Shown here one piece after another: positions 34,566-53,776 of a stretch of DNA of 64,000 nt (position 1 is the first letter of the stretch; each line of letters begins with the position of its first letter). Source of the DNA: Polyangiales bacterium (GTDB lineage: Bacteria; Myxococcota_A; Polyangia; Polyangiales; Ga0077539); NCBI GenBank assembly GCA_044229975.1, contig JBGARZ010000015.1, forward strand, positions 1 to 64,000. The letters are read 5' to 3'. The position numbers and the translations under genes are program-made. The notes under the pieces are model-generated. The model did no database searches. It was not told the DNA's origin and saw nothing but the letters and a program-made list of their open reading frames with translations.

Positions 34566-35177
34566 CTACCGCATCCGCCGCGATCGCTCCCGCTTCACCG
34601 CCGGGTCGCCTTCGTCCTCACGCTCCGTCCGGCGCCGCTCCGCTGTCGTCGTCCGCAACGCCCGCCGCCACGCCCACTGCCGCCACGCGACGTCCACCAC
34701 ACCCAGCGCCAGCACCGTCCCGCCCAGTCGCCACACGAAGCCCCACCCCGGCGCCGCGCCGTCCCACGCGCTCACGCCCACGGCCAACAGCACCGCTCCG
34801 TAGGCCACCGCCATCGTCGCCGTCGCCCACCCGCCCGGCTCTCCCGACGGGCCCTCTGCGTCCGCCGACCGCCACGCGCCGCGCGTCTGCGCCACCGTCA
34901 CCGCCGTCGCCGCCACCACCGCCGCGCCCAACGTCACCCCCAACGGAACCACCACCCGCGCCGCGACGCTCGACGCCGCTCGCCACGGTTCGACGTCCGC
35001 TCTCGCAGTCAGCGTGAGCATCTCGCGCATCGCGCTCCGCAGCGCGGCGCTCAGCGTCGGCAGCGTCGCGAGCACGGCCACCGCCGTCGCTCCGAACACC
35101 GCCACGCCCGACAGCGGCGATCGCCCCTCGCGGAGCGCGCGGTCGAGCTCGCGCGCGGTCGGTGGCTGCGTCGTCAC
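34566..35177 (-). CDS. Short FlhB/YscU-like membrane protein lacking the NPTH cytoplasmic domain (copy A)
   Basis: T.PPT.R.L.RA.REG N-terminus and LR.T..E.R...E.EGDP.VKR C-terminus. Confidence 0.7.
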   Translation of the reverse strand: MTTQPPTARELDRALREGRSPLSGVAVFGATAVAVLATLPTLSAALRSAMREMLTLTARADVEPWRAASSVAARVVVPLGVTLGAAVVAATAVTVAQTRGAWRSADAEGPSGEPGGWATATMAVAYGAVLLAVGVSAWDGAAPGWGFVWRLGGTVLALGVVDVAWRQWAWRRALRTTTAERRRTEREDEGDPAVKRERSRRMR

Positions 35178-35196
35178 GGCGAGCGATTATAGACGC

Positions 35197-35571
35197 TCAC
35201 TCCGCAGGAACGAGCGCGACCTCGAACATCACCGGCCAGAGCTTCCCCGTCAGGAGAAGGCGTCGCGTCGAGGGCTCGTAGGCGATGCCGTTGAGCACCG
35301 CTTCGGGCTCGGTGAGACCCAGCGAGACTCGTGAGAAGGGCAGCACGATCCAGGCGACGACGCGGCCCGTGGCCGGGTCGATTCGCGCGATGCGGTCGCT
35401 GTGCCAGACGTTGGCGAAGACCTCGCCCTCCACCATCTCCAGCTCGTTGAGCTGGTCGATGGGGTTGCCCCGCCAGGTCACCCGGACGCGTCGTCGCTTG
35501 ACGAAGGTGTCGGGGTCGAGGAAGCGCAGGGTGTCCGTCCCGTCGCTGTGGCGGCGTCGAGCACGCGCACC
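35197..35571 (-). pseudogene. Glutaminyl-peptide cyclotransferase, 3' remnant with internal deletion (copy A)
   Basis: SDGTD...LNELE...ANVW...VLNGIAY...TGKLWP; relative to the intact copy, 49994-50195 is missing and the 5' end is absent. Confidence 0.88.
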
Positions 35572-35966
35572 AACCAGCGGTCGCACCGACCTCGCGCTCT
35601 CGCCCGACCTCATCGTCCTGCCGTACAACCTCTTCGTCCCGATGATGCTGCACCGCCTGCTCCGGGGAGATCAGCGCCGTCGGCACAGAGGGCCCTTCGA
35701 TGAGGGCGGGCGCAGCTCCCGACGCACGTCGCCGACCACGCGCACTTCGCAACCGGAGCGTCTGGTCCACTCGAGCGGAGTCGGGCCCGCGAGGGTGCCC
35801 CGTTGAACCTCCTGTCGGCCTCGACATCGCCGGTCGCGATCGTCTCGGCGCGGGGATCGCCGCCATGGCGGCGGGGGTGGCGGCGGGGTGGCGGCGGGCC
35901 GGCGACGGGCCATGCAATCGGAGCGTGACGCCCTGGTTCCCCGGTGATTTTCGGCGGTGTGAGGGC

Positions 35967-35998: not shown

Positions 35999-37585
35999 AT
36001 GGCCACCGCCGCCACCAATTCGGGCGAGTACGTGCGCCACGACCCGACGCAGACCACGCTGCACGCGCTCGTCGCAAAGCACCTCAAGACCTTCCTCGCG
36101 TTCGCCGAGGAACGCTCGGGACGCGCGCTGCCGCGGTACGTCGTCGAGGAGTTCCACGGGTACCTCCGCTGCGGGGTGCTGGCCCACGGCTTCGGGAGGG
36201 CGCGATGCAGCGGGTGCGGCCACGACATCCTGGTGGCGTTCTCGTGCAAGCTGCGCGGCGTGTGCCCGTCGTGCGGCGGGAGGCGCATGTGCCAGACCGC
36301 GGCGACGGTGTGCGATCGGGTGCTGCCGAACGTGCCGCTGCGGCAGTGGGTGCTGAGCGTCCCGTACGAGCTGCGGAGGGTGCTTGCGGCCGACGCGGCG
36401 ATGCTGACGCGGACGTCGCGGGTGTTCTTCGAGGAGCTGCGCCGCTGGTACCGCGAGGCGAGCGGCCTCGCGCGGAGCGACGTGCTGAAGGTCGAGGCGG
36501 GGGCGATCACCTTCGTGCATCGGGGCGGCGGTTCGCTCAACGCTCATGTGCACCTTCATGTCATCGCTGCGGACGGCGTCTGGCGCTGTGCGACCGACGG
36601 CTCGACGCCGATCTTCGTCGCGACGCGGCCGCCGACGAAGGGCGACCTGGAGGGGGTTCTCGCGCGGGTGGCGGAGCGGGTGGCGAAGGCGATGGAGCGG
36701 GCGGGCGGCGGTGACGGTGACCGCGCGAGGAACGAAGCGCTCGAAGGGTGTCGGCGAGCGGCCAGTGCACGCGGCGAGTATGGCGTGGTGCGCGACGGAC
36801 GGGTGCCGGAGGCAGGCGAGGCCGCGGGCGAGGCGGTCGATGAGGCGCGCTTCGGACGACGGCCTCCGAAGGCGCAGGTGGGCGCGCTGGAGGGGTTCAA
36901 CCTGCACGCGAGCGTGGTGATCGGCGCGACGGACCACGAAGGGCGCGAGCGGCTGCTGCGCTACGTGGCAAGGCCCACGGTGGCGTCCGGGAGGGTGAGC
37001 GAGCTCGCGGATGGGCGCGTGGCGTGGCGGCTGAAGGTGTCCGGCGGGCGCGGGGAGACCCATCGGATCATGGAGCCGATGGAGTTCATGGCTCGCTTGA
37101 GCGCGCTGGTGCCTCCGCCGAGGTTTCCATTGGTGCGGTACCATGGTGTATTCGCACCGAATTCTCCCTGGCGCGTCGCGGTAGTTCCGCTGCGGTCGGC
37201 GTGCGCGGGGGTGAAGGTGAAAGCATGCGCGACTTCGGCGGCGCGTACACGCGAGGGGACGGACGCGACGGAGACGTCTACGACCGCGACCGCGACCGCG
37301 ACGACGGCCCGCGGCGAAGCGAAGGGCGACGACGGGTGGATGTGGACGCCGGACGGCGCCGCGCCGCCAGCGGCAGTACGCACCTCCGGGAGAATGGACT
37401 GGGCCACGCTGATGCACCGCGTGTGGGGCTGGGACGTGCTCGGGTGCCCGCGGTGTGAAGGGCGGTTGCAGTTCATCGCCGTCATCACGCAGCGCGCCGT
37501 GATCGAGCGGATCCTGACGCATGTCGGGCTCTCCGCCGCGCGGATCGTTGCGGCGCCGGCACGGCACTTCGACGACACGAGCTGA
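35999..37585 (+). CDS. IS91/ISCR-family rolling-circle (HUH) transposase, intact
   Basis: Zn-binding CG...C..CG...FSCK.RG.CPSC, RQWVLS.P, HUH in NAHVHLHV, GF.LHA, LLRYVARP, VRYHGVFAP, CP.C.G. Confidence 0.95.
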   Translation: MATAATNSGEYVRHDPTQTTLHALVAKHLKTFLAFAEERSGRALPRYVVEEFHGYLRCGVLAHGFGRARCSGCGHDILVAFSCKLRGVCPSCGGRRMCQTAATVCDRVLPNVPLRQWVLSVPYELRRVLAADAAMLTRTSRVFFEELRRWYREASGLARSDVLKVEAGAITFVHRGGGSLNAHVHLHVIAADGVWRCATDGSTPIFVATRPPTKGDLEGVLARVAERVAKAMERAGGGDGDRARNEALEGCRRAASARGEYGVVRDGRVPEAGEAAGEAVDEARFGRRPPKAQVGALEGFNLHASVVIGATDHEGRERLLRYVARPTVASGRVSELADGRVAWRLKVSGGRGETHRIMEPMEFMARLSALVPPPRFPLVRYHGVFAPNSPWRVAVVPLRSACAGVKVKACATSAARTREGTDATETSTTATATATTARGEAKGDDGWMWTPDGAAPPAAVRTSGRMDWATLMHRVWGWDVLGCPRCEGRLQFIAVITQRAVIERILTHVGLSAARIVAAPARHFDDTS

Positions 37586-37692
37586 CGCGAGGGTGGGCAC
37601 CACGGAAGACAACGGCGACAGCAGGCGAACGGCTGACGACGTGAGGCCGCGGCTTGTCTCGAGGGCACGGAGCGAGGGCCGTTGGATTCGCT

Positions 37693-37872
37693 CATCCAGC
37701 GTCCGATCCCTCCTCTCTGTGACCACAATAGCGTGCAGGTACAGTAGGTTACAGAATCAATATTACACGCAACAGTAAAATGTAGGCGCACGGTCTGCAC
37801 CGCGGCGACGTCTGGTTGGGCCGACCGACGGGGTGCTCCTCAAGCCCACGCGGCATTGGACGCCCTATCCAC
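37693..37872 (+). repeat. 180-bp module, copy 1 (oriIS-like right end)
   Basis: catccagcgtccgat...gcattggacgccctatccac; identical to copy 2 by eye; ends 287 bp after the transposase stop. Confidence 0.95.
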
Positions 37873-38145
37873 AAAGATCGTCCAGCGCAGCTTCATGAAT
37901 GCTCCTCTCGAAACGTTTTCGCGGTTTGGGAGACGCTCCAGGTCCAGCTTAACAACAATCCTCTTCTGGCCCGGTGCCGCCCAGCAAGATGTCGAGACGA
38001 CCACTTCGTCCGTTTATTCACGCTCGTCTGCAGGCGGCGAAGGCGCTCGGCCCCACGCTCCCCGGCCACCCGGGTGTCCCCCGCGCGGGGCCGTCTCGGC
38101 GAGCTTCCAGCGCCCTCGGCCGAGGAGCATCAGAGAGGTCCATCC

Positions 38146-38871
38146 CTACCCGACCGTCCGCTCGAGGCGAATTTCGACCTCGCGCTCGACGAACGTCCAC
38201 TCCTCTCGCGAGCGCAACATGCCGACGAGGTCGTCGAAGGCGCCGCGATGCTCCGGGGCCATCTCGAACCACGTGAGAAAGTCGAACGGCTCCCCAAGGT
38301 CCCTTGAATGGTAAAGTCTTCGGGCAATGCGAGGCAGGTAGGCCATGCTGTCGGCGATGTGGTGGGAACGTGCCTCGAAGATGGCGCGACGCTCGTCCTG
38401 CGGGAGCGCCCACCAAGCAGGGGACTTGCGTATCGGAATGAGCACCGCGAGCGTTGCCTCCGGCCTCGCGAGGGGTGGACTCTGGGAGTCCAGGCGCGCC
38501 TTCTCGCTTCGCTCGACGTACCTGGCATGGCTCGTGACTCCGCGAAGAGCCCACGAGTCATTGCCCTGAGCCGGCGTCTCCGCGAGGCCAGCGAGCACAG
38601 CCACCCGGCTCACCGCGGACAGCGCATCCCCGCGAATCGCAGACATACCTGTCACGCGCCACGGCCCCTCCCTGCCTCCTGTGAAGGTCGCTTGGACTAC
38701 TCCTGGTCGGGTCATTCTCTTCGCCTCTTGAGCTCGGGGTGATGGTGGCGACTGGGGAGGTTCCGCCCCAGCTCCCTTGGCGTTCACGTGGCAGCCGGCC
38801 TCGAGGGCGGCGAGGGTGCAGCTCGCGCCCGCGAGCATGAACGTGCGTCTCGTTGTTCGATGTGCCTTCAT
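38146..38871 (-). CDS. cld: Chlorite dismutase family protein (short type)
   Basis: LIPIRKS.AWW.L.QDERR, HI...YL..IARRLYHSRDL.EPFDFLTWFE. Confidence 0.85.
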   Translation of the reverse strand: MKAHRTTRRTFMLAGASCTLAALEAGCHVNAKGAGAEPPQSPPSPRAQEAKRMTRPGVVQATFTGGREGPWRVTGMSAIRGDALSAVSRVAVLAGLAETPAQGNDSWALRGVTSHARYVERSEKARLDSQSPPLARPEATLAVLIPIRKSPAWWALPQDERRAIFEARSHHIADSMAYLPRIARRLYHSRDLGEPFDFLTWFEMAPEHRGAFDDLVGMLRSREEWTFVEREVEIRLERTVG

Positions 38872-38884
38872 TTTCCGCGCCTCG

Positions 38885-39100
38885 TTAAGGCAACACGCAT
38901 TTTCCGCTGATACACTTCGCTCCCCTTGGGCAGGCCTTTCCGCATCCGCCGCAGTTTCCAGGGTCCGTCATTTTGTCGATGCACTTACCCCCGCTAGAAG
39001 CAAACGAACAGAAACTTTTCGGTGCATCACACGTCTGGCACCGATAGGCCCCGTCGGGTCGCTTGAAGCACTTTTGGGGCGACTCGCACGACATACCGCA
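38885..39100 (-). pseudogene. 3' fragment of a Cys-rich repeat protein gene
   Basis: ...CIDKMTDPGNCGGCGKACPRGAKCISGKCVLP*; 5' part replaced by the 54-bp repeat. Confidence 0.7.
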
Positions 39101-40213
39101 AGAGCGTAAGTAAATCAAGGCACTTTTCAGGGGTGTCGGCTGGGCTCGCGGGGATGGCGTTTCGCGACCTTCCGGGGTCGCGGCGGGCGCGCCGAGGCGG
39201 TCTCGGCCCTGGCACGGAGGTTGCCGAACCCCACCAAGCGCCATGCCGGCGCAGCGCGGCCTTCGGGCGCCCCTTGCGCACGTTCTACTCGGCTGCCTCG
39301 ACGCTACCGGCACCTCGACGGAGGACTCGACTTGCCCAGTACGGAGGCCCTCGAGCGGGCGTGCGCTTCGGCACGTCGGTGGGCTCGCCAATGCCCCGCA
39401 GGTACCGAGCGACGCTGGTCGGATCGGTGACGAGCGCGAGCAGCTTCATCCTTCCGCTGCAGCACGGGCAGGTCAAAACGTCGAACCCAAAGGTCCGTTT
39501 AAGAAGCTCCGCCCACGGACGATAGCCGCCTCGGCGCGGTCTCTCGGGCACGTCCACCGTGGGTATTGGAGCAACCGCCGGCTTCGGCGCCAGACGAGCC
39601 CGAACCTTACTCGCCGACGCGAGCACCCCCGCATACCGAACGGTGTGCAAGCGCGGCGCGGGTACCGACGCCGCGAGACGGCTGAGCAGCGAGAGTGGAT
39701 CCATGTCCACCGCCACCGTGCCGTCCGAAAAAGGCTTCTTCAGCGTGATCCGGACGAGGCCGTCAGGCCCTCGGGTCACGCGTTCCTGCGCGACCGCGGG
39801 GCGCAACACGTACTTCAGCAGTGCCTCCCGGCCAGCTTCGTCGTGCCCACCGGCCCGCGTCGCCGCGTGGAGGGTGAAACCATCGAGCGCGACACACAGC
39901 GGGCGCTCGAACACCATGGGTCGGCACTCGAAGAGCAGCGCGCCTCGGCGCCACTCCGGACCGGCAGGCGGCGTAGTGCCCGAGACCGCCGACGCCGCGA
40001 GCACGGCCCTCCCGTCGCCCTCATCCTCGGAATCGCTGTCCTCGACGAGAAGGCCCCGACGACGAAGCCACTTCACCATCCGGTCGCGCGTGCGCTCCAG
40101 CACCGCCCCCACGTCCCGCGTCGACAGGTGCCGAGCGGCACGGAAGTCGAGCTCGTCGCTCCCCGCGAGCCCAGCCGACACCCCTGAAAAGTGCCTTGAT
40201 TTACTTACGCTCT
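39101..40213 (-). mobile_element. IS91-family remnant bounded by perfect 54-bp inverted repeats
   Basis: 39101-39154 is the exact reverse complement of 40160-40213; encloses a transposase C-terminal half. Confidence 0.88.
39285..40159 (-). pseudogene. C-terminal half of a second, divergent IS91-family transposase
   Basis: GFTLHA, GRE.LLKYVLRP, VRYAGVLA, WAELLKR.FG.DVL.CP.C.G; Zn finger and HUH motif absent. Confidence 0.88.
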
Positions 40214-41108
40214 CGGACTGGGTAAGACCGAGGCAGTAGCCGTAGAGGGTCTCGAGCTCGGCGTCGTCGTTCTTCGGGGTCTGCTCGCGGAGCTCGCGGA
40301 GGAGCACGAGCGCGGAGGGGAGCTCGGCGCGACGGACGAGGCCGCGCGCTTTGAGCCGCGCGAGGACCGGATCGCGGGCCGCCTCGCCCTTGGTCGAAGG
40401 GGGCGGAGGCTCGGGCGTGCTCGCGGGCGCCTTCTGCGCGTTCATGATCCGCGGCTCGCTCATCGGCGGCTCTTTGCGCGGATCGTAGGGCTCCGCGCGC
40501 TTCTGCACACCGGAGATGGGGATCTCGACCGACGGAGGCCGGAGCGGGCTCGGGGCGCGGAACTGCATCGACGCGCGGCGGAGCGCCTCCGTCTCGGGGG
40601 TGACCGTGGCGACACGAGCGCGCCGGAGGAGCAGGAGGGCGTACACGATTCGCGCATCGACCGCCGACACGCGCGAGAGCTCGAACGCGCTGAGCGGCTT
40701 CGGCTCCGACAAGAGCTTCGCGACGCGCGCCTCGGCGTCGGAAAGCTCGAGGTCGGCGAGCTGCTCGAGGAGGCCGAAACCCGATGCACCTTGCACGTAT
40801 CCCGCGAGCACGATCGGCCGATCGCCGACGCGATCGAGGGCTTCTCGTGCGCGGGGGGGCAAGAACACCTCGCGGAGACCACGGAGCACGGCGCGCCCCA
40901 CCGACACCGGCACGTCGTCGCGCCCATAGGTGGGGATGAGGTCGAGGCGGTCGTAGAAGCCGAACCGGGTGCTGCCCGGAAGGTGGAAGAGAGACGCGAG
41001 CTTGCGCGTGAGCTGCTCGCCGACCGCGATCGCGACGAGGTCGGGGGACACCATGCCCCGCTCCTTCACGATGTCCCCGAAGAGCACCTTCGGCGTACGG
41101 GTGGAGGC
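40214..41108 (-). pseudogene. Internal fragment of a myxobacterial DUF4388/DnaJ-associated-type protein gene
   Basis: LFGDIV...EQL.RKL..LF.LP..T.F.FY motif, Pro-rich linker, start of a TPR-like helix; cut at both ends by repeats. Confidence 0.6.
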
Positions 41109-41288
41109 CATCCAGCGTCCGATCCCTCCTCTCTGTGACCACAATAGCGTGCAGGTACAGTAGGTTACAGAATCAATATTACACGCAACAGTAAAATGTA
41201 GGCGCACGGTCTGCACCGCGGCGACGTCTGGTTGGGCCGACCGACGGGGTGCTCCTCAAGCCCACGCGGCATTGGACGCCCTATCCAC
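41109..41288 (+). repeat. 180-bp module, copy 2
   Basis: Identical to 37693-37872, with unrelated flanks. Confidence 0.95.
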
Positions 41289-41351
41289 CGGTCTCCTGGG
41301 GGTGCGCCTGCGCTGTCGACGCCTACGGGTCGCGGTTCTCCCCAGGCAGCG

Positions 41352-42398
41352 TCACTGCCGCATGCAGCGGAACCCGACGCCGGTCGAGTACGACACCTCG
41401 AGGCCCTCGCGGTACCAGGCGCGCACGTCGTTGGCGCTGGTGCTGCGCCAGTTGCCTCCACGGATGATCCGGATCGTGCTGCCCCCCGTGCTCACGGGGT
41501 CGTCCACGTACGTGGTCATATTGCCCGTATAGGTGAAATACCGGTCCGAGGTGAGCTCGGCGATGCCCCCGCCCATATCGAACAACCCACGAGCCCCTGC
41601 GGGGAACATGCGCACCGGGCAGGTGTTCGGCTGGATGGTGCCGCCGCCACTCCAGCACAGTTGAGCGCCGGGCGCCTCTGGCCCCCACGGGTACATCCGT
41701 CCGTCGACCCCGCGCGCCGCGTACTCCCACTGCGCTTCGGTGGGGAGGCTCGCGCCACCGCGCCACACGCAGTACGCGATCGCCTGCTCCGCCGTGACGC
41801 AGTTGATCGGGTGATCGTCGCGCCCGGAGACGCCCCAATTGCAGGCCGGGAGCGTCGCCGTCGGCGTGCACCCCATCGCGGTCGGACACTCGCGATAAGC
41901 GCGCACGGTCACCTCGGTGACGTCCAGGCAGAACGCCCTCAAGCGAACGCCATGCACCGGCAGGGCGAGCGGCTCCGTCCCCGTCGCATCCCCCATCAGG
42001 AACTGACCTGCGGGGATGAGCGCCATGCCCGCAGGACAGCCCGTCCCCGTGTCGGTTGTCCCGACGTCGGTTGTCCCGATGTCGGTTGTCCCGATGTCGG
42101 TTGTCCCGATGTCGGTTGTCCCGATGTCGGTTGAGCCGATGTCGGTTGAGCCGATGTCGGTTGTCCCGATGTCGGTTGAGCCGGAGTCCGCGGGAGGGGC
42201 GTCGATCGCCAGGGGGCGGTCGTCGGGGGCATCCGTCGCGACGTCCGATGGGCTGCCTGCGTCCGGCGAGCGCGAGTAGTACCTCCAATCGTCGCGGACA
42301 CAGGCGAGCGCGCCCACGACGGTCCAGAGCGCGACGAGTCGACCTACCCGGCGGAGAGGCATCGGCAGACCGTCCCCCGCAGCGGTCGGCGCTGTCAA
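41352..42398 (-). CDS. Formylglycine-generating-enzyme (FGE/SUMF1) domain lipoprotein
   Basis: G.F.MG, D.TEVT, P.NCV, LPTEAQWEYAARG, RGG.W, GFRC; start uncertain. Confidence 0.9.
   Translation of the reverse strand: MTAPTAAGDGLPMPLRRVGRLVALWTVVGALACVRDDWRYYSRSPDAGSPSDVATDAPDDRPLAIDAPPADSGSTDIGTTDIGSTDIGSTDIGTTDIGTTDIGTTDIGTTDVGTTDTGTGCPAGMALIPAGQFLMGDATGTEPLALPVHGVRLRAFCLDVTEVTVRAYRECPTAMGCTPTATLPACNWGVSGRDDHPINCVTAEQAIAYCVWRGGASLPTEAQWEYAARGVDGRMYPWGPEAPGAQLCWSGGGTIQPNTCPVRMFPAGARGLFDMGGGIAELTSDRYFTYTGNMTTYVDDPVSTGGSTIRIIRGGNWRSTSANDVRAWYREGLEVSYSTGVGFRCMRQ
42051..42183. repeat. 15-bp coding tandem repeat (about 9 units, (T/S)TDIG)
   Basis: gtcggttgtcccgat / gtcggttgagccgat units. Confidence 0.9.
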
Positions 42399-42453
42399 CG
42401 CCGATGGGCATGGCGGGCCGCTGCGCAGAGACCCCGCGGCGCCGCCCTGGACG

Positions 42454-42939
42454 TCAGTCGCGCGTCACCCCGGCATCGCACACCGCGCGGACGACGCAGC
42501 GCCATCGCAGACCAGCCTCCGCCGCGCCGCAGTAGCAGTCCCAGTCGAGGAGCCTCCGGTTGCCCGGGCTGCCGCAGTTCCACCAATTCTCGCAGTAGAC
42601 GCCTGGCGTGTCGCACTGGCCCTGGTCGCCCGACGGGTCGAACTGGAAGCAGGTGTGGAGGTCACCCTCGCAGTCGAAGAAGCGCATCAACTCGGCGCAC
42701 GAGCGCACGCGCCCACCGACCTCGCTCGCCATCACGGGACGATCGAAGCCGACATCCGGGGCGGGAACATCCGATGCGACCGTGGCATCCATCGCGTCGA
42801 TGTCGTTCACATCGGACACGTCGGACGCATCGATCACGGCTGCATCCGCGCTCGCGTCCGTCGGGCCGCGCGGGTCTTCGTCGCACCCCATGGCGAGCGC
42901 CGCGATCAGCGCTCCGAGTCCGTGAACACGCTCCACCAT
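42454..42939 (-). CDS. Small Cys-containing lipoprotein
   Basis: LAMGC lipobox, DA-rich linker. Confidence 0.65.
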   Translation of the reverse strand: MVERVHGLGALIAALAMGCDEDPRGPTDASADAAVIDASDVSDVNDIDAMDATVASDVPAPDVGFDRPVMASEVGGRVRSCAELMRFFDCEGDLHTCFQFDPSGDQGQCDTPGVYCENWWNCGSPGNRRLLDWDCYCGAAEAGLRWRCVVRAVCDAGVTRD

Positions 42940-43183
42940 CTGATCACGAGTGGTACATCCAAAGCGGCCGCCAGGCGCGCGACGGGGAGTCACCGGCGGT
43001 AGCGGTCGACGAGGTCGCCACGGCCATGGCGATCGCGGTCGCATCATACCGGAGCCGCTGTACGGTCAACCTGGCGGGCCGTGGTGGCCGGGGACCGACG
43101 AAGCGGTGGAGGCCTCGTTTTTACCGAGAAGTGTATGCACCGAAGGGTCCGTGTCCCCTTCGGAGTCCAGAGACCTCTCTGCG

Positions 43184-43397
43184 GTTCGACGCGATGGTCG
43201 GCAGTCCCGTGAGCCAGACCCGGAGCGCGAGCGACGGCCACTGCCGACGCGACGCCCGCGTTGCCAGATTGCTTTCCGGCACGTGGAGATCGCTCTTCGA
43301 AAGCGTCGTCGGAGTTCTCGACTGGCAACGCGAGCGTCGCGTCCCGTGGCTCGCGCTCCGGGTCTGGCTCAGGGGACTGCCGACCATCGCGTCGAAC
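43184..43397. repeat. Long intergenic inverted repeat (arms about 80 bp)
   Basis: 43184-43267 pairs with 43322-43397 with a few mismatches and one indel. Confidence 0.88.
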
Positions 43398-43465
43398 TGG
43401 AGATGGCATCGCCGTCGACTGGCCCGACGTTGACCCATCCACGGTCGCTCGGCGAAGGTTCCGCC

Positions 43466-45319
43466 ATGAGCACCCGACCGACCGCCGCATCGTGGACCCT
43501 GCTCGTGGTCGCCCTCGCCGCGTCGGCCTGCTCGTCGGACAACCTGGTCGCGGGCGTCGACGGCGGCGGCTCCGTCGATGTCCCCATCATCACCAATGAC
43601 CTCGGCGCAACCATAGATGCGCCCGTCGATGTGTCCACGATCGACGCTCCTGCGGTCGACGTGCCCTTCCGATGCGCCTCCGAGGCCGACTGCTCGGGCA
43701 ACACCACGGGCTCCGTCTGCGATGTGGCCACTGGCCGCTGCGTTGCCTGCACCGCCGCGCGCGACGTGTGCCCGACCGGCCAGCGCTGCGACGACGCGAG
43801 CCACGCGTGCGTCGCCGGGTGCCGCGACGACTCCTCGTGCGCCACGACCACGGGAGCCGACAGCTCGGTCGGCGCTCGCCGCCGCTGCGACCTCAACTCG
43901 CGCGCCTGCGTCGACTGCCTCGTCAACGACGACTGTCCCGCCGGGACCCTCTGCGTCGGCAACCTCTGCGTCGCCGGCTGCGCCGGTGGGAGCCGCTGTC
44001 CCACGGGCCAGAGCTGCTGCGCCGGCGCGTGCGTCGACACGCTCGCCAACGTGGCGCACTGCGGCCGATGTGATGCGCGGTGCAGCGTTCCCAACGGGGG
44101 CGCCTCGTGCCTCAACGGCGCATGCTCGGTGGCCACCTGCGCGGCCCCGTACGGTGACTGCGACCGCGACGCCGCCAACGGGTGCGAGACCAACACGCTC
44201 ACCGCCGTCGCCCACTGCGGCGCGTGCGGCGCCGCCTGCCCCACGCGCGCCAACGCCAGCGCCACCTGCGCGGGCGCGACCTGCGGGTACACCTGCAACG
44301 CGGGCTTCGCCGACTGCGACGGCGACGCGACCAACGGCTGCGAGGTCGACACCCGCACCGACACCGCCCACTGCGGAACCTGCACGACGATGTGCTCGCT
44401 CCCGCGTGCAACAGCGGCGTGCGTGGCAGGCGGGTGCCAGGTCACGGCCTGCACCGCGGGCTACGCGGACTGCGACGGCGCAGCGTCCAACGGCTGCGAG
44501 AGCGACACGCGGGTCGACGTCTCCCATTGCGGCGGGTGCGGTCGGGCCTGCGCCGTCCGACCGAACGCGGCGCCCGCCTGCGTAGGCTCCGCCTGCGTGA
44601 CGACGTGCATCGCGGGGTACTCCGACTGCAACACCGTCGAGGCCGACGGGTGCGAGCGCAACCTGCGCAACGACCCGGCCAACTGCGGCGCGTGCGGGCG
44701 CGCGTGCGGAGCGGGCGGTGCGTGCTGCGAGGCGACCTGCGCGACGACCGCCAGCGACCCGGCCAACTGCGGCGCGTGCGGGCACGCATGCGCAGCGAAC
44801 GAGGCCTGCGAGTCGGGTCGCTGCCAGGCCGCGCTCGGGTGCGCGTCGGGGCCGAGGCGGGGGTTCACGGACGTCGCTGCGTTTCCGCGCATCGCGGCGT
44901 GTGGGGCGCGGGTGAGCTTCGCGGCGGCGACGACGACGGCGGCCACGGTGTGCGCGCCGGGCTGGCACTTCTGCAACCCCGCCGACCTCAACGCGACGAC
45001 GGGGACAGCGCCGGACTTCGTCCCGGCCGACGCGATGGGGTGGGTGCTCTACACCGACCCGACGACGACGGTGTGGGGCGACTACTCGGTCGCCGCGTGC
45101 GGCGGGGTGACGCCCGCGGTGGCGAACCTCGCGGGCACTGGTGCGTGCACGGCTTCGGGGGTCTACCCCGAGGGCTGGCGGCTCGCGACGTCGACGTCGT
45201 ACTGGCCGTGGTCGCACCGCAGCAGCAGCGGGTGCGTCGAGCACGCGGTGCACATGTGCATCACCGACGGCGGGACGATCCCGGCGACGACGGCGTACGT
45301 GCTCTGCTGCGCGCCCTGA
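43466..45319 (+). CDS. Cys-rich repeat surface lipoprotein
   Basis: ASAC lipobox; repeats of C..G.ADCD...NGCE......HCG.CG..C. Confidence 0.85.
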   Translation: MSTRPTAASWTLLVVALAASACSSDNLVAGVDGGGSVDVPIITNDLGATIDAPVDVSTIDAPAVDVPFRCASEADCSGNTTGSVCDVATGRCVACTAARDVCPTGQRCDDASHACVAGCRDDSSCATTTGADSSVGARRRCDLNSRACVDCLVNDDCPAGTLCVGNLCVAGCAGGSRCPTGQSCCAGACVDTLANVAHCGRCDARCSVPNGGASCLNGACSVATCAAPYGDCDRDAANGCETNTLTAVAHCGACGAACPTRANASATCAGATCGYTCNAGFADCDGDATNGCEVDTRTDTAHCGTCTTMCSLPRATAACVAGGCQVTACTAGYADCDGAASNGCESDTRVDVSHCGGCGRACAVRPNAAPACVGSACVTTCIAGYSDCNTVEADGCERNLRNDPANCGACGRACGAGGACCEATCATTASDPANCGACGHACAANEACESGRCQAALGCASGPRRGFTDVAAFPRIAACGARVSFAAATTTAATVCAPGWHFCNPADLNATTGTAPDFVPADAMGWVLYTDPTTTVWGDYSVAACGGVTPAVANLAGTGACTASGVYPEGWRLATSTSYWPWSHRSSSGCVEHAVHMCITDGGTIPATTAYVLCCAP

Positions 45320-45364
45320 TTCTCTCCCGACGGCTCCGCGCGGCAATGCAGCGTATCGAGACCT

Positions 45365-46276
45365 TCAGCGTGACGCTTCGTTCACGAGCCAATCGCGGAA
45401 GGCGACCAGCTTCGGAAGGGCGGCGCGCTCGGGCCGATAGACGATGTAATAGGCAAGCACCGAGGAGAACTCGACGTCGGGGAAGAGCCGCACCAGCCGG
45501 CCCGCCGCCAGGTCGTCCCGCGCCATGATGCTGCGGGCCAACGCCACGCCCAGCCCGTCGATCGCCGCCTGGAGCACCCCGGCGGAGTTGTTGATCCGTA
45601 GGCCTCGCTTCGTTTTGACGTCGCCCATCCCGGCCTTCTCCAACCACGCGTCCCACGTCGCGAAGCCGGAGTGCGCGTCGACCGACAGGTCGTGGATGAG
45701 GCTCGGTCCGGCAAGGTCCGCCGGCCTGCGAAATCGGCGGTTTCGCTGGAAGACGGCCGGAGAACAGACGGGATAGATCTCCTCGTCCATGAGCTTCTCG
45801 GCAGTCAGGCCCGGCCACGTCCCGGCGCCGTAGCGCACCCCGATGTCGATGCCGCGTGCGGCGAAGTCGAGCACCTCCATGGAGGCGTCGAGCCTCACGT
45901 CCGTGTCGGGCCACCGCGCTTGAAACCGCTCGATGCGTGGAAGTAGCCACTTGGCCGCGAAGGCCGGGCTGACGGTCACGGTCAACACGCCGTTGGCCGA
46001 CCCCTCCTTGAGTCGCGCAAAGCCGAGGCTCAACCGGTCGAACCCCGCGCGGATGTCAGGCAGGGCGCGCTGAGCCGCCTCGGTCGGCACAAGCCGCGTC
46101 CGGCCGCTCGTACTTCGATGAAACAGCGCCGTGCCGAGCGTCTCCTCCAGGCTTCGTACGAGCTGCCCGACGGCCGCGGGCGTCACGTGGAGCTCGGACG
46201 CGGCGGCCGAGAAGCTCTCGTGCCGAGCGCTCGCCTCGAAGGCGCGCAGCGCGTTCAGATGATCGGGCGCCCTCAA
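45365..46276 (-). CDS. LysR-family regulator (GcvA-like)
   Basis: LNALRAFEASARH.SF..AA.EL.VT..AV..., KWLLPR...F. Confidence 0.93.
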   Translation of the reverse strand: MRAPDHLNALRAFEASARHESFSAAASELHVTPAAVGQLVRSLEETLGTALFHRSTSGRTRLVPTEAAQRALPDIRAGFDRLSLGFARLKEGSANGVLTVTVSPAFAAKWLLPRIERFQARWPDTDVRLDASMEVLDFAARGIDIGVRYGAGTWPGLTAEKLMDEEIYPVCSPAVFQRNRRFRRPADLAGPSLIHDLSVDAHSGFATWDAWLEKAGMGDVKTKRGLRINNSAGVLQAAIDGLGVALARSIMARDDLAAGRLVRLFPDVEFSSVLAYYIVYRPERAALPKLVAFRDWLVNEASR

Positions 46277-46489
46277 GGACGGCCAAGACTTTCTTTGCCA
46301 GCAACCAAGATCTTATGCTTTGCGATGTCCCGCCTTCGCATCGATATTGGAGTCTCACGGATCGAGGAAAACTCCCGACGTCGGCGCGACACGGCCCCTT
46401 GGGTCACACGAACCCAGGCCTGCCGTCAAGAGCGCTTGTCGGGACAGTTTTTCTTTCACACAACGCCTCGTGTCCCAAGGAGAACCCCA

Positions 46490-46771
46490 ATGGTCTATTT
46501 GCAAATCACCCTACAGATCGCCCCCGCCAACCGACCCGCGGCTGCGGATGTCTACCGGCGCTATCGGTCGCCCTTTCTCGACACGGTCGCCGGGGCGAAG
46601 TCGAAGGTCCTGCTCGTCCGCGAGGACGACGTCCAGGTGCTGCACGGCTTCGATACGGCAGAACAGGCGAACGCCTACCTGAAGAGCGCTCTCTTCACGG
46701 CCGACGTCGTCGGCGCGCTCAAGCCGCTGCTCGCCGCCGCGCCGGACGTCCGGGTCTATCAAGCGGCCTGA
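46490..46771 (+). CDS. Small conserved-looking protein divergent from the LysR gene
   Basis: AAGGAG RBS; MVYLQITL...LLVREDDVQVLHGF. Confidence 0.8.
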   Translation: MVYLQITLQIAPANRPAAADVYRRYRSPFLDTVAGAKSKVLLVREDDVQVLHGFDTAEQANAYLKSALFTADVVGALKPLLAAAPDVRVYQAA

Positions 46772-46802
46772 CGCCCTCCCGCGCAGGCGACTACGCCGAC
46801 GC

Positions 46803-47399
46803 TCACCCCAGCACGCGCACCCTGAACCCTCCGAGCAGGGTCACCACCTTCGTCAGCGGCAGCCCGATCACCGCCGTGAAGTCGTCTCCGCGTATCCCCT
46901 CGAAGAGCGCGATGCCCAGCGACTCCACCCGGTACGAGCCCGCGCAGTCCAGCGGCGCGTCCCTCGCCACGTAGTCCGCGATCTCCTCGTCCGTCAGCGC
47001 CCGCATCGTCAGCGTGTGCGTGTCGATCATCGTCTCGGTGCGACCGCTCGCCCGGTGATGCACCGCCACCGCCGTGTGCTGCCGGTGCTCACGGCCCGCC
47101 AGCCGCCTCAGCTGAGCCCTCGCCCGCTCCGCTGTATGCGGCTTGCCCAGCGCCTCGCCGTCGACCTCGCCCATCTGGTCGGCGCCGATGATCACCGCGT
47201 CTGGAAACGCCTCGCCCAGACCCACAGCCTTCCCGATGGCCAGCACTCGGGCTCGCTCGGGGATGGGCAGCGCGCCGAGTCCGTCCTTCGCGGCCTCCTC
47301 GTCGAAGGGCGTCGCCATACACTGCACGGTAATCCCGAGCCGCTCGATGAGCTCCCGGCGGTACCGCGACGTCGATGCGAGGATCACCGTCGTCGTCAT
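46803..47399 (-). CDS. maf: Maf-family nucleoside triphosphate pyrophosphatase (YceF-like)
   Basis: ILASTS.YRRELI, IGADQ, GKP, PLDCAGSY..E, GLPL. Confidence 0.92.
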   Translation of the reverse strand: MTTTVILASTSRYRRELIERLGITVQCMATPFDEEAAKDGLGALPIPERARVLAIGKAVGLGEAFPDAVIIGADQMGEVDGEALGKPHTAERARAQLRRLAGREHRQHTAVAVHHRASGRTETMIDTHTLTMRALTDEEIADYVARDAPLDCAGSYRVESLGIALFEGIRGDDFTAVIGLPLTKVVTLLGGFRVRVLG

Positions 47400-48002
47400 G
47401 CGAGTGGATCGTCCACTTCGACCTCCGCCGCCCGCTGCCGCCGCGCCGCCAGCCGAGACTGCGCGTACTTCACCAGCGGTTCGACGTACGCGTCGAACGG
47501 CGGACACTCCACCCCGCGCGCCATGAGCAGGCCGCGCGCCCCCGTGTCGGCGTAGCGCGCCCTCGTGGCGAGGCGATCGACGAAGGCCCGCGGGCTGCGG
47601 GTGAGCCGCTCCAACCCCGGCGTGTTGAGCAGCGCCCGTGTGAGGTTCACCGGAACCATCCCCCGCGGAACCCTCCGCCCCGCCACCTGCGCGATGCGCT
47701 CGAAGGCCGCACCCGTCGACGGTGGCGTCGGGTCGACCACATGGAAGGTTCGCCCCACCGCTTCGCGTGCCGCCCCGAGCGCAACCCCCGCCCGCGCCAC
47801 GTGATCGACCGGAACCACATGCAGCGGCAGGTCACCGCCCGCCGGCAATGGGAGCTGCATGTCCACCGGCGAGCTCAGCATCAACACGATGAAGAGGTAC
47901 GGCCCGTCGAAGAGGTCGATCTCGCCGGTCTGCGAGTCGCCCACGATCATCGACGCGCGCAGCACCGTCACCGGCAGCGTGGTCATCGCGCGTCGCAGCA
48001 GC
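47396..48002 (-). pseudogene. 3' fragment of an extended-SDR / male-sterility-type oxidoreductase
   Basis: LPVTVLR.S.IVGDSQTGEI..FDGPY, VPVD.VA, TFH.VDP; the N-terminal Rossmann fold is missing, cut at module copy 3. Confidence 0.82.
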
Positions 48003-48175
48003 CATCCAGCGTCCGATCCCTCCTCTCTGTGACCACAATAGCGTGCAGGTACAGTAGGTTACAGAATCAATATTACACGCAATAGTAAAATGTAGGCGCA
48101 CGGTCTGCACCGCGGCGACGTCTGGTTGGGCCGACCGACGGGGTGCTCCTCAAGCCCACGCGGCATTGGACGCCC

Positions 48176-49187
48176 GGCTCATGTTCCCCTCGGGGTGATG
48201 GGCCTGAGCAACTGGGCGAGGAAGCCCAGGAAGTCGTGCCGGAAGTTGTGCATGCCTTGGTAGAAGGCCAGGTAGAGGTCGAGGTTCCACTTGCTCACGC
48301 CGCGGAAGGGTCGGAGGTAGTTCCGCAGGCCGAGCCAGAAGCCCTCGATGGTGTTGGAGTGCACCTCTCGGATGCCGTCCCCATCATCGTCGCGCGCCCA
48401 CTCCTTGCGCTTGTGGTTGACCGAGAAGCGCGTTCGACCTCGGTCGTCTAGGTCGTCGTAGGCATGCCACTCATCGGTGTGGACCTCGGTGCCGGGGTCC
48501 GTCACGCGCAGGACCACGGGCTCGATCGCCTTCACCGTGCTGCGATACGTCTGCCGCAGGAACACTTGACCGGACTCCCGGCCAATCACTCCGAGAATGG
48601 GCGGGCGATCGTTGTCGAAAGTGCCATGTCCATTGAAGTGATGGCCGCGCCGACGCGGTGGGTCATCGGGATCGGGATGGGGGCGGCCCTTCTCCCCGGC
48701 GTTCTGGTACATCTCGTCGGCTTCCACGAGACGATCGGGCAGGGCGCAGGGGGGAAAAGCGTTCAAGCGCCATGCCCTGAACGCGGTGTCGCAGTCGGAG
48801 CAGGTTGCGTCGACCGACACCAAGCTCCTGCGACAGATGCAGCGTAGTAACGCCCTGACAGAAGCCGCGCAGGATCATGACCAATCGCGGGGACGAGAAG
48901 CGCACTCCCTGAAGCGGCGTGCCGGTGAACACGTTGAAGACCTTGCCGCAGGCGCGACAGCGGTAGTCCACCACGGGCTCACGGTGACGATCATGGGGCG
49001 CTTGATCGTCGGGTAGCTCGTGTCCCTCGGGGCAGCGGAGGCCCTCCGGGTGGATCGCCTCCAGCAGCAGCCGGTAGCACGCGCCCTCGTCCAGCAGGTC
49101 GTCGATCGGGAACAGCATCGTGCCTGATCCGTACCTCCAACCGGAGCTCCCCGGAAGGGGGCGTTCACCCCGAGGGGAACATGAGCC
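48176..49187 (-). mobile_element. IS1595-family insertion sequence (1012 bp)
   Basis: Perfect 23-bp IR GGCTCATGTTCCCCTCGGGGTGA; 8-bp TSD GGACGCCC at 48168-75 and 49188-95. Confidence 0.93.
48179..49118 (-). CDS. IS1595 transposase split over two frames
   Basis: OrfA: Zn ribbon (CP.G...YRCRACG..F...TGT) and HTH; OrfB: VEADEMY, TDEW..Y, VNH, H.NTIEGFW; frames overlap at TTTTCCCCCC. Confidence 0.85.
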
Positions 49188-49202
49188 GGACGCCCTATCC
49201 AC

Positions 49203-49623
49203 CACCGTCCCACGCGCTCACGCCCACGGCCAACATCACTGCCCCGTAGGCCAATGCCATCGCCGCCGTCGCCCACGGGCTCGGCTCCCCCGACGGACCC
49301 TCCGCGTCTGACGACCGCCACGCGCCGCGCGTCTGCGCCACCGTCACCGCCGTCGCCGCCACCACCGCCGCGCCCAGGGTCACCCCCAACGGAACCACCA
49401 CCCGCGCCGCGACGCTCGCCGTCGCCCGCCACGGGTCGACGTCCCCGCGCGCAGCCTGCGTGAGCATCTCGCGCATCGCGCTTCGTAGCGCCGCGCCCAA
49501 GGCCGGCAGCGTCGCGAGCACGGCCACCGTCGTCGCGCCGAACACCGCCACGCCCGACACGGGCGATCGCCCATCGCGGAGCGCGCGGTCGAGCTCACGC
49601 GCGGTCGGCGGCTGCGTCGTCAC
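49203..49623 (-). pseudogene. FlhB/YscU-like gene, 3'-truncated (copy B)
   Basis: Homologous to 34759-35177; cut after ...AWDG by the module end. Confidence 0.85.
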
Positions 49624-49642
49624 GGCTCGCGATCATAGACGC

Positions 49643-50443
49643 TCACTCTGCCGGAACGAGCGCCACCTCGAACATCACCGGCCAGAGCTTGCCCGTCAGG
49701 AGAAGTCGCCGCGTCGAGGGCTCGTAGGCGATGCCGTTGAGCACCGCCTCGGGTTCGGTGAGGCCGAGCGAGAGGCGCGAGAAGGGCACCGTGATCCACG
49801 CGACGACGTGGCCGGTGGCCGGATCGATGCGCGCGATGCGGTCGCTGTGCCAGACGTTGGCGAAGACCTCGCCCTCCACCATCTCCAGCTCGTTGAGCTG
49901 GTCGATGGGGTTGCCCCGCCAGGTCACCCGAACGCGTCGTCGCTCGACGAAGGTGTCGGGGTCGAAGAAGCGCAGGGTGTCGGTTCCGTCGCTCATGATG
50001 AGGAGGTGGCCGTCGTGCGTGAGGCCCCAGCCTTCGCCCTCGTAGCCATGAGTGGTCACGGGCTCTAGCGTCGCGGCGTCGTACACGAAGCAGGTCTGCG
50101 TCTGGTAGGTGATCTGGAAGACGCGGTTGCCGAGGACGGTGAGCCCTTCGGCGAAGTGTTCGTCGGACACCTCGCGGCGTCGCGTGATGGCGCCGGTGGT
50201 GGCGTCGAGCACGCGCACCGACGACCGGCCGCGCAGGCCGGTGCTCTCGTAGAGGGCACCCGCGTGGAAGGTGAGCCCCTGGAGGAACGCCTCGCGATCG
50301 TGGGGAATGCGCGCGATGACGCGGGCCGTGTAGCGCGTCGGCGGCGTGGTCGGGGCGGTCGGAGCCGCGGGCGCGACGGGCGAGGGGAGGGCGGGGAAGC
50401 AGCCCGGGAGCATGACGAGGGCGACGACGGACAGGCGCACCAT
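49643..50443 (-). CDS. Glutaminyl-peptide cyclotransferase (intact copy B)
   Basis: PHD..AF.QGL, ESTG, FAEGL, GEGWGL, SDG, LNELE, LNGIAY, TGK.WP. Confidence 0.93.
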   Translation of the reverse strand: MVRLSVVALVMLPGCFPALPSPVAPAAPTAPTTPPTRYTARVIARIPHDREAFLQGLTFHAGALYESTGLRGRSSVRVLDATTGAITRRREVSDEHFAEGLTVLGNRVFQITYQTQTCFVYDAATLEPVTTHGYEGEGWGLTHDGHLLIMSDGTDTLRFFDPDTFVERRRVRVTWRGNPIDQLNELEMVEGEVFANVWHSDRIARIDPATGHVVAWITVPFSRLSLGLTEPEAVLNGIAYEPSTRRLLLTGKLWPVMFEVALVPAE

Positions 50444-51473: not shown

Positions 51474-51776
51474 GCGGGACGACGGTCGTTGTACCCGCTC
51501 GTGGCCGGGGTTGGTCGCGTCCCGCGCCTGCACCACCGGGCAAGCGAAAGCAGGCGCCCCTTCGGGGCTTTCGGAAGCAATCGGCCACCGCGATCGGGCT
51601 CAGTGTCCCGTCCCACGCCGCGGCGTCAGCGCGGCGCGCGAAGGCTACGTCAACAATCCCCCGTTGATTGGGGGGCTGACCGTTGCGCGCCGCGCTGACG
51701 CCGCGGCGTGGGCTCCAACTGGGAGCCCGACCTCACTGTTGAGCGCTTCTGGAAGCCCCGGAGGGGCGCCTGCTTT

Positions 51777-53701
51777 GTGCGCCCGGCATGGGCGTTGGCT
51801 TCGGGGTGCAAGTCCCCGGGAAAGTAGGTCATGACGATCCACGCGAGAGGCAAGGGCAGCGAGGCAACGGACTGTCTGAAGGAAGCCCGACGCGAAACGG
51901 CGAGCCGACGGACAGAAAGCCGATGTGAGGCCGTGCGGTCTGGGGCGAGCGGGCAAGGAGCCGCGAAGCTCCAATGACCAAGAGACCGTGCGGTAGATCG
52001 GGCGGTTGCGCCGTGAAAGCCAGCGTTTCTTACCCGGGGAGATCCTGCTTCACGCCTGAAAGGGCGACACACACCAACGTGCGGCGCAGGAAGTCAGCAG
52101 AGGTCGTAGTAGCGCGTCCGAAAACCTGGGCTCCCGCGCCGACGTCGCCAACGACGTCGGAGACACGACGGGGAACGCCACGACGAAGGGCCGACGGCCG
52201 CGCAAAGGACCAAACGGAAGGGAGGGTGCATCGACCATGAGTCTCAAAAGGGAACCGCCTCAGATGCCCGGGACACCACCGGGGCGAGGGAGGCGCGACG
52301 AGGGTGAAGCCCTCAACGCGCAGCCCCGCGAGGAAGACCCCACGGCGACGAAAGGAGACGAGCACTCGGGCACCAGCGCCTTGCTGGAGGCGGTCCTCGG
52401 AAGGGACAACCTCTTGCGGGCGCTCCAGCGGGTGCAGAGCAACCGGGGCAGCCCCGGAGTGGACGGGATGGAGACGAAGGATCTCGCGGCCCACCTGCGT
52501 GTGCACTGGCCGCGTCTGCGCGAGGACCTCCTCGCGGGGCGCTACCAACCGCAGCCGGTGAGATCGTGCGAGATCCCCAAGGCGTCGGGCGGCACGAGGA
52601 CTCTCGGCATCCCGACGGCCCTGGATCGTCTCCTCCAACAGGCGATCCTCCAGGTGCTTCAGCCTCGATTCGATCCGACCTTCTCACAGCACAGCTACGG
52701 GTTCCGCCCGGGGCGCAGCGCGCACGACGCGATTGTCGTCGCACAGCGCTACGTCCAGGAGGGGCGCGGGGTGGTGGTGGACGTGGACCTCGAAGCGTTC
52801 TTCGACCGCGTGAACCACGACGTGCTGATGGGCCGGTTGGCCAAACGCATCGAGGACAAGCGCCTGCTGAGGCTCATCCGTCGCTACCTGGAGGCCGGGA
52901 TGATGGCCGACGGGATCGCGACGGCGCGGACGGAGGGAACGCCGCAAGGCGGCCCGCTGTCACCACTGCTGGCGAACGTGCTTCTGGACGAAGTGGACAA
53001 GGAGTTGGAGCAGCGCGGTCACGCGTTCGTGCGCTACGCCGACGACCTCAACGTGTACGTGAGGTCGGAGCGGGCGGGCGAGCGAGTGATGGCATTCCTG
53101 CGGGAGCGCTTCGCGTCGCTGCACCTCCGGGTCAACGAGTCCAAGAGCGCGGTGGCGCCGGTCAAGGGACGGAAGTTCCTGGGCTTTCAGTTCTACGCGC
53201 ACGGCGGAGAAGTGAAGCGAGGGGTGTCGGCGAAGTCGCAAGAGGCGTTCAAGGCGCGTGTGCGGGAGCTCACGAGCCGGACGGCGGGTCGCAGTCTGGT
53301 GCAACTGATCGAGAGGCTGAATCGGTACCTGCGTGGGTGGTGGGCGTACTACCGCCTCACGCAGCAGACGAAGCTCTTCGAGGGGCTGGACGAGTGGATT
53401 CGCCGTCGCCTTCGGATGGTGCAACTGAAGCACTGGAAGCGAGGCATCACGATCTACCAGTCGCTGCGCGCCCTTGGACAAGGGGACGAAGCAAGCTGGA
53501 AGTCGGTGGCCTCGGCCGGTGGCTGGTGGCGCCGCGCGCTCCGCCTGGGCTTCACGCTCCGACCCAGTTGGTTCGACAGCCTCGGGTTGTGGAGGCTACG
53601 GAGGTGACCTCAACCGTCCGAACCGCCGGATGCGGACCCGCTTGTCCGGTGGTGTGGCAGGGGTCGGCTCCTCCTCACGGAGGGGCCGCCCCTATGCCGA
53701 T
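51777..53701 (+). mobile_element. Group II intron, bacterial class C
   Basis: 5' GTGCGCCCGGCATGGGCG; short domain V gaaccgccggatgcggacccgcttgtccggtggtgtg; domain VI ending ...ctatgccgAT; removing it restores the palindrome arm exactly. Confidence 0.95.
52237..53607 (+). CDS. ltrA: Group II intron reverse transcriptase/maturase, no endonuclease domain
   Basis: PGVDG, IPK..G..R.LGIP, SYGFRPGRS.H, GTPQGGPLSPLLAN, RYADD, FLGF, maturase X domain. Confidence 0.96.
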   Translation: MSLKREPPQMPGTPPGRGRRDEGEALNAQPREEDPTATKGDEHSGTSALLEAVLGRDNLLRALQRVQSNRGSPGVDGMETKDLAAHLRVHWPRLREDLLAGRYQPQPVRSCEIPKASGGTRTLGIPTALDRLLQQAILQVLQPRFDPTFSQHSYGFRPGRSAHDAIVVAQRYVQEGRGVVVDVDLEAFFDRVNHDVLMGRLAKRIEDKRLLRLIRRYLEAGMMADGIATARTEGTPQGGPLSPLLANVLLDEVDKELEQRGHAFVRYADDLNVYVRSERAGERVMAFLRERFASLHLRVNESKSAVAPVKGRKFLGFQFYAHGGEVKRGVSAKSQEAFKARVRELTSRTAGRSLVQLIERLNRYLRGWWAYYRLTQQTKLFEGLDEWIRRRLRMVQLKHWKRGITIYQSLRALGQGDEASWKSVASAGGWWRRALRLGFTLRPSWFDSLGLWRLRR

Positions 53702-53776
53702 CGCTTGCCCGGTGGTGCAGGCGCGGGACGCGACCACACCCGGTCCGAAGTGGTCGCACGATCACCCGATGACCTG

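Follow-up and report, generated by a model that had tools for sequence, protein, structure and literature searches.

A transposase of the ISCR/IS91 type heads a co-oriented array of origin-end modules that likely records repeated DNA capture in a Polyangiales bacterium

ISCR elements are thought to capture genes, resistance genes included, and their signals are poorly defined. As of 2018, ISCR transposition was without experimental demonstration, according to the available part of PMC6218425. For IS91, the accessible text of PMC13181058 describes bottom-strand copying that begins at oriIS and can end either early or late, and the accessible sections of PMC3189936 and PMC6354349 report IS801 right-end fragments of 229, 360 and 679 bases, with neighboring DNA carried along. 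Complex class 1 integrons show a bracketing duplication like the one that we found around the element described here (available part of PMC3575428), and a "sandwich" capture between two oriIS has been reported for ISCR28, at second hand, in the accessible part of PMC12772301.

We analyzed a window of 64,000 nucleotides from a Polyangiales bacterium (contig JBGARZ010000015.1); coordinates below are window positions, G000 designates the bacterium's own genome and C-numbers its contigs. The window contains three near-identical copies of a 180-base module, starting at 37693, 41109 and 48003, all of them 3' of an ISCR/IS91-type transposase gene. The features of the locus are as follows.

34759-35547: left copy of the bracketing duplication, a direct duplicate of the right flank
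35686-35820, plus strand: degenerate module of a second subfamily, just 5' of the transposase gene, with a 68% match to the module at C14:206498
35999-37585, plus strand: ISCR/IS91-type transposase gene, intact, 528 aa, zinc-binding and Y2 domains
37678-37699, plus strand: internal origin-like site, GCCGTTGGATTCGCT followed after the break by CATCCAG; its left half is found in copy 1 only
37693-37872, plus strand: module copy 1, the first copy, starting 107 bases past the transposase stop
37733-37782: AT-rich core, GC 0.325-0.40 in 40-nt windows, confined to one module sub-lineage
37851-37872, plus strand: oriIS-like right end, finishing ..CATTGGACGCCCTATCCAC, conserved in relatives as TTGGA-4nt-CYTATC
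37873-41108 (3236 bp): cargo A, with a chlorite-dismutase-family gene, an inserted IS91-type fragment and a 5'-truncated gene at the right end
41109-41288, plus strand: module copy 2, 100% identical to copy 1
41289-48002 (6714 bp): cargo B, including LysR, Maf and a 5'-truncated SDR/NAD-binding gene
48003-49202, plus strand: module copy 3, with one change (in 48003-48175), interrupted close to its right end by an IS1595-type element
48176-49187: IS1595-type element in copy 3, with an 8-bp target duplication, GGACGCCC
49203-49993: right flank, a cut FlhB/SctU-family gene and the 3' end of a glutamine cyclotransferase gene

The layout works like that of integrons and CRISPR arrays, in which an enzyme gene and a full first site are followed by units of repeat and cargo in one direction, with signs of growth at the enzyme end. 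Integrons use a tyrosine recombinase and CRISPR arrays use Cas1-Cas2, whereas the enzyme here is an HUH transposase; integrons carry single gene cassettes and CRISPR arrays short spacers, whereas the cargo here is arbitrary DNA of 0.3 to 13 kb with cut genes. The repeats also differ from those of both systems in having no conserved hairpin. The element shares with ISCR elements (ISCR1, ISCR2/ISVsa3 and ISCR28) a transposase with a zinc finger and a Y2 HUH domain (33% identity to those of ISCR1 and ISVsa3), an oriIS-like end ∼230 to 290 bases past the stop codon that finishes in CCTAT plus four bases, and variable DNA to the right of oriIS. Unlike ISCR elements, it has a fixed break in a second, conserved origin-like site, a short end piece of fixed length repeated many times behind one gene, and chromosomal cargo that cuts through ordinary genes; its score lies far under the NCBIfam clade cut-off, and no terIS could be defined. 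Short right-end pieces, the lack of a target duplication and the pickup of neighboring DNA are shared with IS91, IS801, IS1294 and the IS801 miniatures, in which such pieces are ascribed to early termination at internal sites (accessible parts of PMC3189936, PMC6354349 and PMC13181058). IS801 fragments, however, end at a tetranucleotide with no other consensus, target a tetranucleotide and are scattered, whereas here the break falls in a family-conserved 13-base motif, the target is only a pyrimidine/pyrimidine preference and the copies form one-directional arrays. Thus, mini-ori fragments (IS801) and gene capture (ISCR) are known already; for a conserved internal break site combined with co-oriented cargo arrays, we found no precedent in a literature search that covered subscription journals thinly.

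Both domains of the transposase scored above the Pfam gathering score (Zn_Tnp_IS91, 4e-16; Y2_Tnp, 4e-25), and its HxH and tyrosine columns are invariant across 10 relatives. The best NCBIfam model was ISCR_clade_Ia (NF052416; 275 bits, with a cut-off of 925), and the IS91 model NF033538 gave 91 bits (cut-off, 125), which places the transposase nearer the ISCR models than IS91, yet under both cut-offs. An HUH transposase with zinc-binding and Y2 domains and an oriIS 3' of the gene without terminal inverted repeats are features of the IS91/ISCR family, and both are present here; a search for a long inverted repeat bounding the element returned none. The absence of a target-site duplication also fits, since the two sides share 0 to 1 base at 50 of 57 modules, the longest shared stretch being 4 bases. 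The tetranucleotide target that adjoins oriIS in IS91 proper (IS91, IS801 and IS1294) is absent: only the first base after the right end is biased, those beyond being near background. In our terIS search, a GC-rich repeat block at ∼35860-35910 was common to some relatives, and no common boundary emerged. Judged by its enzyme and end structure, the element is a member of the IS91/ISCR family.

We aligned the region 3' of 16 related transposase genes and found two blocks in the same direction, one internal and one terminal. The internal block reads TTGGA-N-TCG-S-T-CA, with 10 invariant columns, and the terminal block TTGGA-4nt-CYTATC plus three bases. A module begins with the CA of the internal block and closes where the terminal block ends. 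In the window, the break between 37692 and 37693 (T/CA, the slash marking the break) is the left end of the module, and later copies keep the CA and what follows. This second TTGGA..T/CA site, which straddles the left end of copy 1, is the conserved feature that the earlier note, made from the sequence of the window, had missed. The full internal site lies 3' of a transposase C-terminus in 26 of 27 cases, and a C-terminus was found 5' of none of 83 later copies, the single transposase match there being an N-terminal piece. The right end resembles, as judged by eye, the ends of ISCR1 and ISVsa3 taken from plasmid records (..CTTCCTATACCC and GGCGTT..CTTCCTATACGT, respectively) in its position and its CCTAT-plus-four finish. 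Two observations speak against the explanation that we prefer below: the spacing from TTGGA to the break is unequal in the two motifs (6 and 12 bases), and we found no conserved hairpin at either site. As a separate observation, ISVsa3 (L168, ∼2345-2390) carries GTTGGACTTGGGTGA shortly before its origin end, which is loosely like the internal site, possibly by chance.

Both the module as a unit and its two boundaries far exceed what chance would produce. A BLAST search of the 10-Mb assembly returned no fourth copy, and a truncation of copy 3 was ruled out, because the copy resumes beyond the IS1595-type element and ends at 49202. Cargo A and cargo B, between the copies, are unrelated DNA. Cargo A has no second copy elsewhere in the assembly, and its truncated gene gave no Pfam match and was not found in four congeners with the query used. 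A native locus on C23 matches the end of cargo B (46806-48003) at 87% identity, the match breaking off at the module, within an SDR-family gene. The DNA 3' of copy 3 duplicates 34759-35547 (91% identical, with 68 differences in 789 bases), so that the whole element is bracketed by a 789-base direct repeat. Since a second-subfamily module lies just 5' of the transposase gene, the element may itself be cargo of an older array; ahead of that module stands a 107-bp fragment that is 90% identical to C10. The second subfamily (modules starting CAGCGAGCTC) has its own transposases and more than a dozen mostly decayed copies in G000, the module at 35686-35820 among them (the others on C1, C10, C14, C15, C19, C24 and C32).

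We looked into the distribution of these elements. Transposase relatives (E ≤ 1e-30) were found in 23 of 30 other genomes of the bacterial family, and the closest loci are annotated as Myxococcota, several of them as Polyangiales. A loose terminal-block pattern matched 29 of the 30 family genomes, in excess of a reversed control in some (83 versus 13, 55 versus 7 and 49 versus 4) and without excess in others (5 versus 14 in the control), its matches being concentrated on one strand of single contigs. A two-motif pattern, whose gap range excludes the window's own module, matched both of the 2 family genomes in a sample of the phylum and none of the 298 other genomes. For the junctions, 89 fetched loci and G000 gave 159 module hits, 135 of them nonredundant: 27 first copies, 83 later copies that start from CA, and 25 that failed the filter (edge, divergent or internal starts), the left-end CA being a selection criterion. 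The genomes are related, and counts are therefore not independent. Loci L070 to L146 of a metagenome scan (77 of 80) were excluded from this analysis; the scan gave mostly distant transposases (33 to 51% identity) on short contigs, few of them with a short repeat behind the gene.

We found 13 arrays in 7 genomes, each consisting of a transposase gene and at least one later copy. The first-copy modules fall into 26 distinct types of 109 to 191 bases. Successive co-oriented copies lie 2.8 kb apart in the median (n = 54 gaps, including two of zero length), and neighboring modules are co-oriented in 64 of 80 pairs and opposed in 16. From these sequences, the layout of cargo arrays is one that recurs across the bacterial family. 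Two individual cases are worth describing: a ∼50-kb region of another genome (G112, C6 ∼187500-238500) contains at least 13 modules of two types in two facing transposase-led arrays, and in G000 a cargo between modules on C15 has the same 231 bases at both ends (189240-189470 and 183360-183590; 99% identical).

The base that precedes CA is T in all 27 first copies, and in the 83 later copies it is C in 73, T in 9 and G in 1. After the right end, we found C in 70, T in 24, A in 6 and G in 4 cases, i.e., a pyrimidine in 94 of 104. Five left junctions have a second copy of the cargo in G000, where the sequence continues without a module and with C, C, C, C and T; at right junctions, the preceding base could be read in three cases, one with C and two with G. 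Two loci (L156 and L160) contain cargo-free head-to-tail dimers in which the right end is joined directly to CA. This is the junction that a mini-circle would have, and the dimers give indirect support to a rolling-circle route. We found matches for 19 left and 16 right flanks, and among the 8 modules with homologues for both flanks, none had flanks that are adjacent elsewhere. Cargo next to modules matches host loci at 84 to 95% identity in G000, 87 to 89% in G161 and 93% in G112, with the matches ending at the modules, and it cuts through genes. One 1.8-kb piece in the G112 array is 100% identical to that genome itself, which counts against the explanation that we prefer. An integron was rejected, given that the adjacent enzyme is a Y2 transposase and that the module folds no better than shuffled sequences (z = 0.88); nor do whole-gene cassettes match, at least 40 of 82 left junctions lying inside coding sequence. 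A lone insertion of the MITE type was likewise rejected on the flanks (0/8 adjacent) and on the inverted box (1/26 types).

The gene, the two same-direction motifs, the fixed T/CA break, the pyrimidine/pyrimidine junctions without target duplication, the cargo-free dimers and the unlinked flanks can all be read from the sequence alone. We propose, as a reading that we consider somewhat probable, that the module is an ISCR/IS91-type origin-end piece repeated one way behind the gene, and that the transposase builds the array by copying from the origin to the internal nick and by joining foreign DNA between old and new copies. A bottom-strand nick at the right end would start leftward rolling-circle copying, as for IS91, and the internal site would act as a built-in stop after 109 to 191 bases. 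The stop would release a transposase-bound strand or a mini-circle with the junction ..C/CA.., and a DNA fragment, mostly from a close relative, would be joined at C/C-like points. The resulting unit of cargo plus module would usually land directly behind the first copy, and arrays would grow at the transposase end. The 789-bp bracket duplication would be explained by occasional read-through from a distal origin, in which the element is carried in full as a circle and then integrates by homologous recombination. Two results favor local copying over scattered insertion. Nine of the 13 arrays contain at least one later copy identical to their own first copy, and in 6 of 7 informative arrays divergence is greatest in the most distant copy (p about 0.006; this count left out one array whose far copies belong to another element). 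Speaking against the proposal are the 16 opposed neighbor pairs, the several arrays that mix module types or have no nearby transposase (L149 and L151) and the dispersed second-subfamily modules of G000, as well as two individual arrays: L062 shows no polarity, its first copy differing from all others by 29 to 38 positions, and L050 has a variant copy in second place. Taken further, and more tentatively, the element could be an integron-like DNA collector run by an HUH transposase, in which the origin has been duplicated into a second nick site, a short repeat is copied in place and kilobase fragments from related bacteria are added serially behind the gene as a time-ordered record.

The same junctions would also be produced by a classical multi-step ISCR route, in which a lone end piece transposes as mini-IS801 does, read-through picks up the DNA to its left as a circle, and RecA recombines this circle with a resident module over 120 to 190 shared bases; the array would then be a by-product and not a capture platform. 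Every step has a precedent in the available parts of PMC3189936 and PMC6354349. The route also fits the dispersed modules of G000, the arrays of mixed module type, the apparent hybrid module in L050 and the bracket duplication. What it leads one to expect and what we did not find is a lone module inside one gene (0/8 testable cases) or any lone module among the G000 modules with a second copy of the flank. Moreover, two arrays of one genome each mostly keep their own module variant, despite the presence of a 94%-identical variant in the same genome. We regard this route with homologous recombination as a serious rival, if a rather unlikely source of the arrays, and as probably the explanation of the bracket duplication in either case. 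An assembly artefact, i.e., unrelated sequences joined across a short repeat, has in its favor that many of the relatives come from metagenome assemblies, with contigs that break off at the module, and that none of the contigs examined from sequencing runs spans the window's module with both flanks. In one public DNA run, most of 37873-39130 is present without differences and the module is uncovered; one contig of this run leaves the window sequence at 37873, which is weak, its direction being taken from table numbering. No circle junction was seen in the assembled contigs of the public runs. Against an artefact, the junctions between cargo and module are precise and recur in independent assemblies, cargo differs by 5 to 16% from host copies present separately in the same assembly, and the split copy 3 has a correct target duplication. 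Mis-joins could change the order of pieces, but they cannot create the junctions, and we hold this explanation to be very improbable.

The earlier note had read the module as a possible expression device, in which ATCCA repeats and inverted boxes define the unit and the core gives a promoter, a Shine-Dalgarno sequence and an ATG to the truncated cargo on its left. The motifs are where it placed them: copy 1 opens with CATCCAG and closes with TATCCAC, GCGTCCGAT lies at 37699-37707 with a one-mismatch inverse at 37855-37863, and the minus strand carries GGAGG, with 13 nt between its end and the boundary ATG. At copy 2, this ATG does share the frame of the truncated gene; at copy 3 it does not, and an ATG in that gene's frame begins 19 nt beyond it. 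At both copies, the cargo gene on the left points away from the module. GC content in the core drops to 36% over 50 nt in a genome of 71% GC, a value as low being found in 4 of 100,000 50-base windows of the genome. The note's two precise sites that delimit a unit also stand, all 83 later copies beginning at the CA by which they were selected. In the relatives, however, the motifs are not conserved. Of the 26 first-copy types, the window's own is the single one with ATCCA at both ends, and likewise the single one with an inverted GGACGC box (up to 2 mismatches) and with a 5-nt Shine-Dalgarno sequence placed 4 to 15 nt ahead of the boundary codon. ATCCA and the boxes are therefore not supported as recognized signals, and we discarded the boxes as binding sites and the Shine-Dalgarno sequence plus ATG as a fusion device. 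The ATCCA repeats are not a target duplication either, because second cargo copies have no ATCCA at the junction and relatives lack it too. The frame statistics over many copies that the note had called for gave chance values. With a codon model from G000, 40 of the 82 left junctions scored had a clear frame: 18 of the genes point away from the module and 22 point towards it. The boundary codon shares the frame in 9 of these 40, versus 210 of 1,120 random C/Y positions (18.75%; p = 0.54). The boundary codon is ATG in 3, GTG in 15, TTG in 4 and CTG in 4 of the 26 types and, being the reverse of CA plus one base, is a by-product of the conserved CA. A translation start supplied to 5'-truncated cargo is thus not supported. 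As for transcription, the note had found no clean promoter, and we detected no sigma-70-like promoter on either strand of the module (shuffles, 0.0); a 50-nt stretch with GC at or below 50% is present in 4 of 26 types, and a putative promoter in the AT-rich core of this sub-lineage is possible. The note's analogy with ISCR1 oriIS holds for the right end, which resembles oriIS, and fails for the promoters: those of ISCR1 are real and outward and, in the available part of PMC6218425, face away from the transposase to the right side, i.e., opposite to the ATG. Of 53 genes with a clear frame on the right side, 33 point outward (p = 0.10). On this balance, an expression module is improbable; what the array likely reflects is repeated DNA capture, not a switch of gene expression.

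This family of elements offers more than 100 natural base-precise junctions, a conserved second site, an intact transposase and a 180-base substrate, which make the origin, the stop site and the joining rule directly testable. If arrays grow at one end from the DNA of relatives, they would be a new route of gene-fragment shuffling and would hold a dated record of DNA uptake in these bacteria.

Several further repeats and mobile sequences were observed in the window. Within cargo A, 39101-40213 is a 3' fragment of another IS91-type transposase with perfect 54-base inverted repeats at its bounds; the same fragment is found in three public runs, with a different continuation at 40159 and a depth above its surroundings. 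Cargo B contains a 60-base inverted repeat (43178-43403; 93%) with 106 bases separating its arms, a 15-base tandem repeat within a cargo gene (42013-42218) and a 156-base cysteine-rich repeat (44117-44695) that is a member of a large gene family in this genome. Outside the array, a group II intron-type reverse transcriptase gene (52237-53607; RVT_1 and GIIM) is surrounded by inverted repeats at 51505-51547 and 53701-53743. Finally, we found IS1595-type elements at four sites that share one position within the origin motif (four or five bases past TTGGA), namely, 48176-49187 of the window, L003 at 1926 (plus strand) and at 237 (minus strand), and the minus strand of C24 at reverse-strand position 163014. 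Four of the 10 end-like IS1595 matches listed fall in an origin-motif context, and elements of this type may target these origins.
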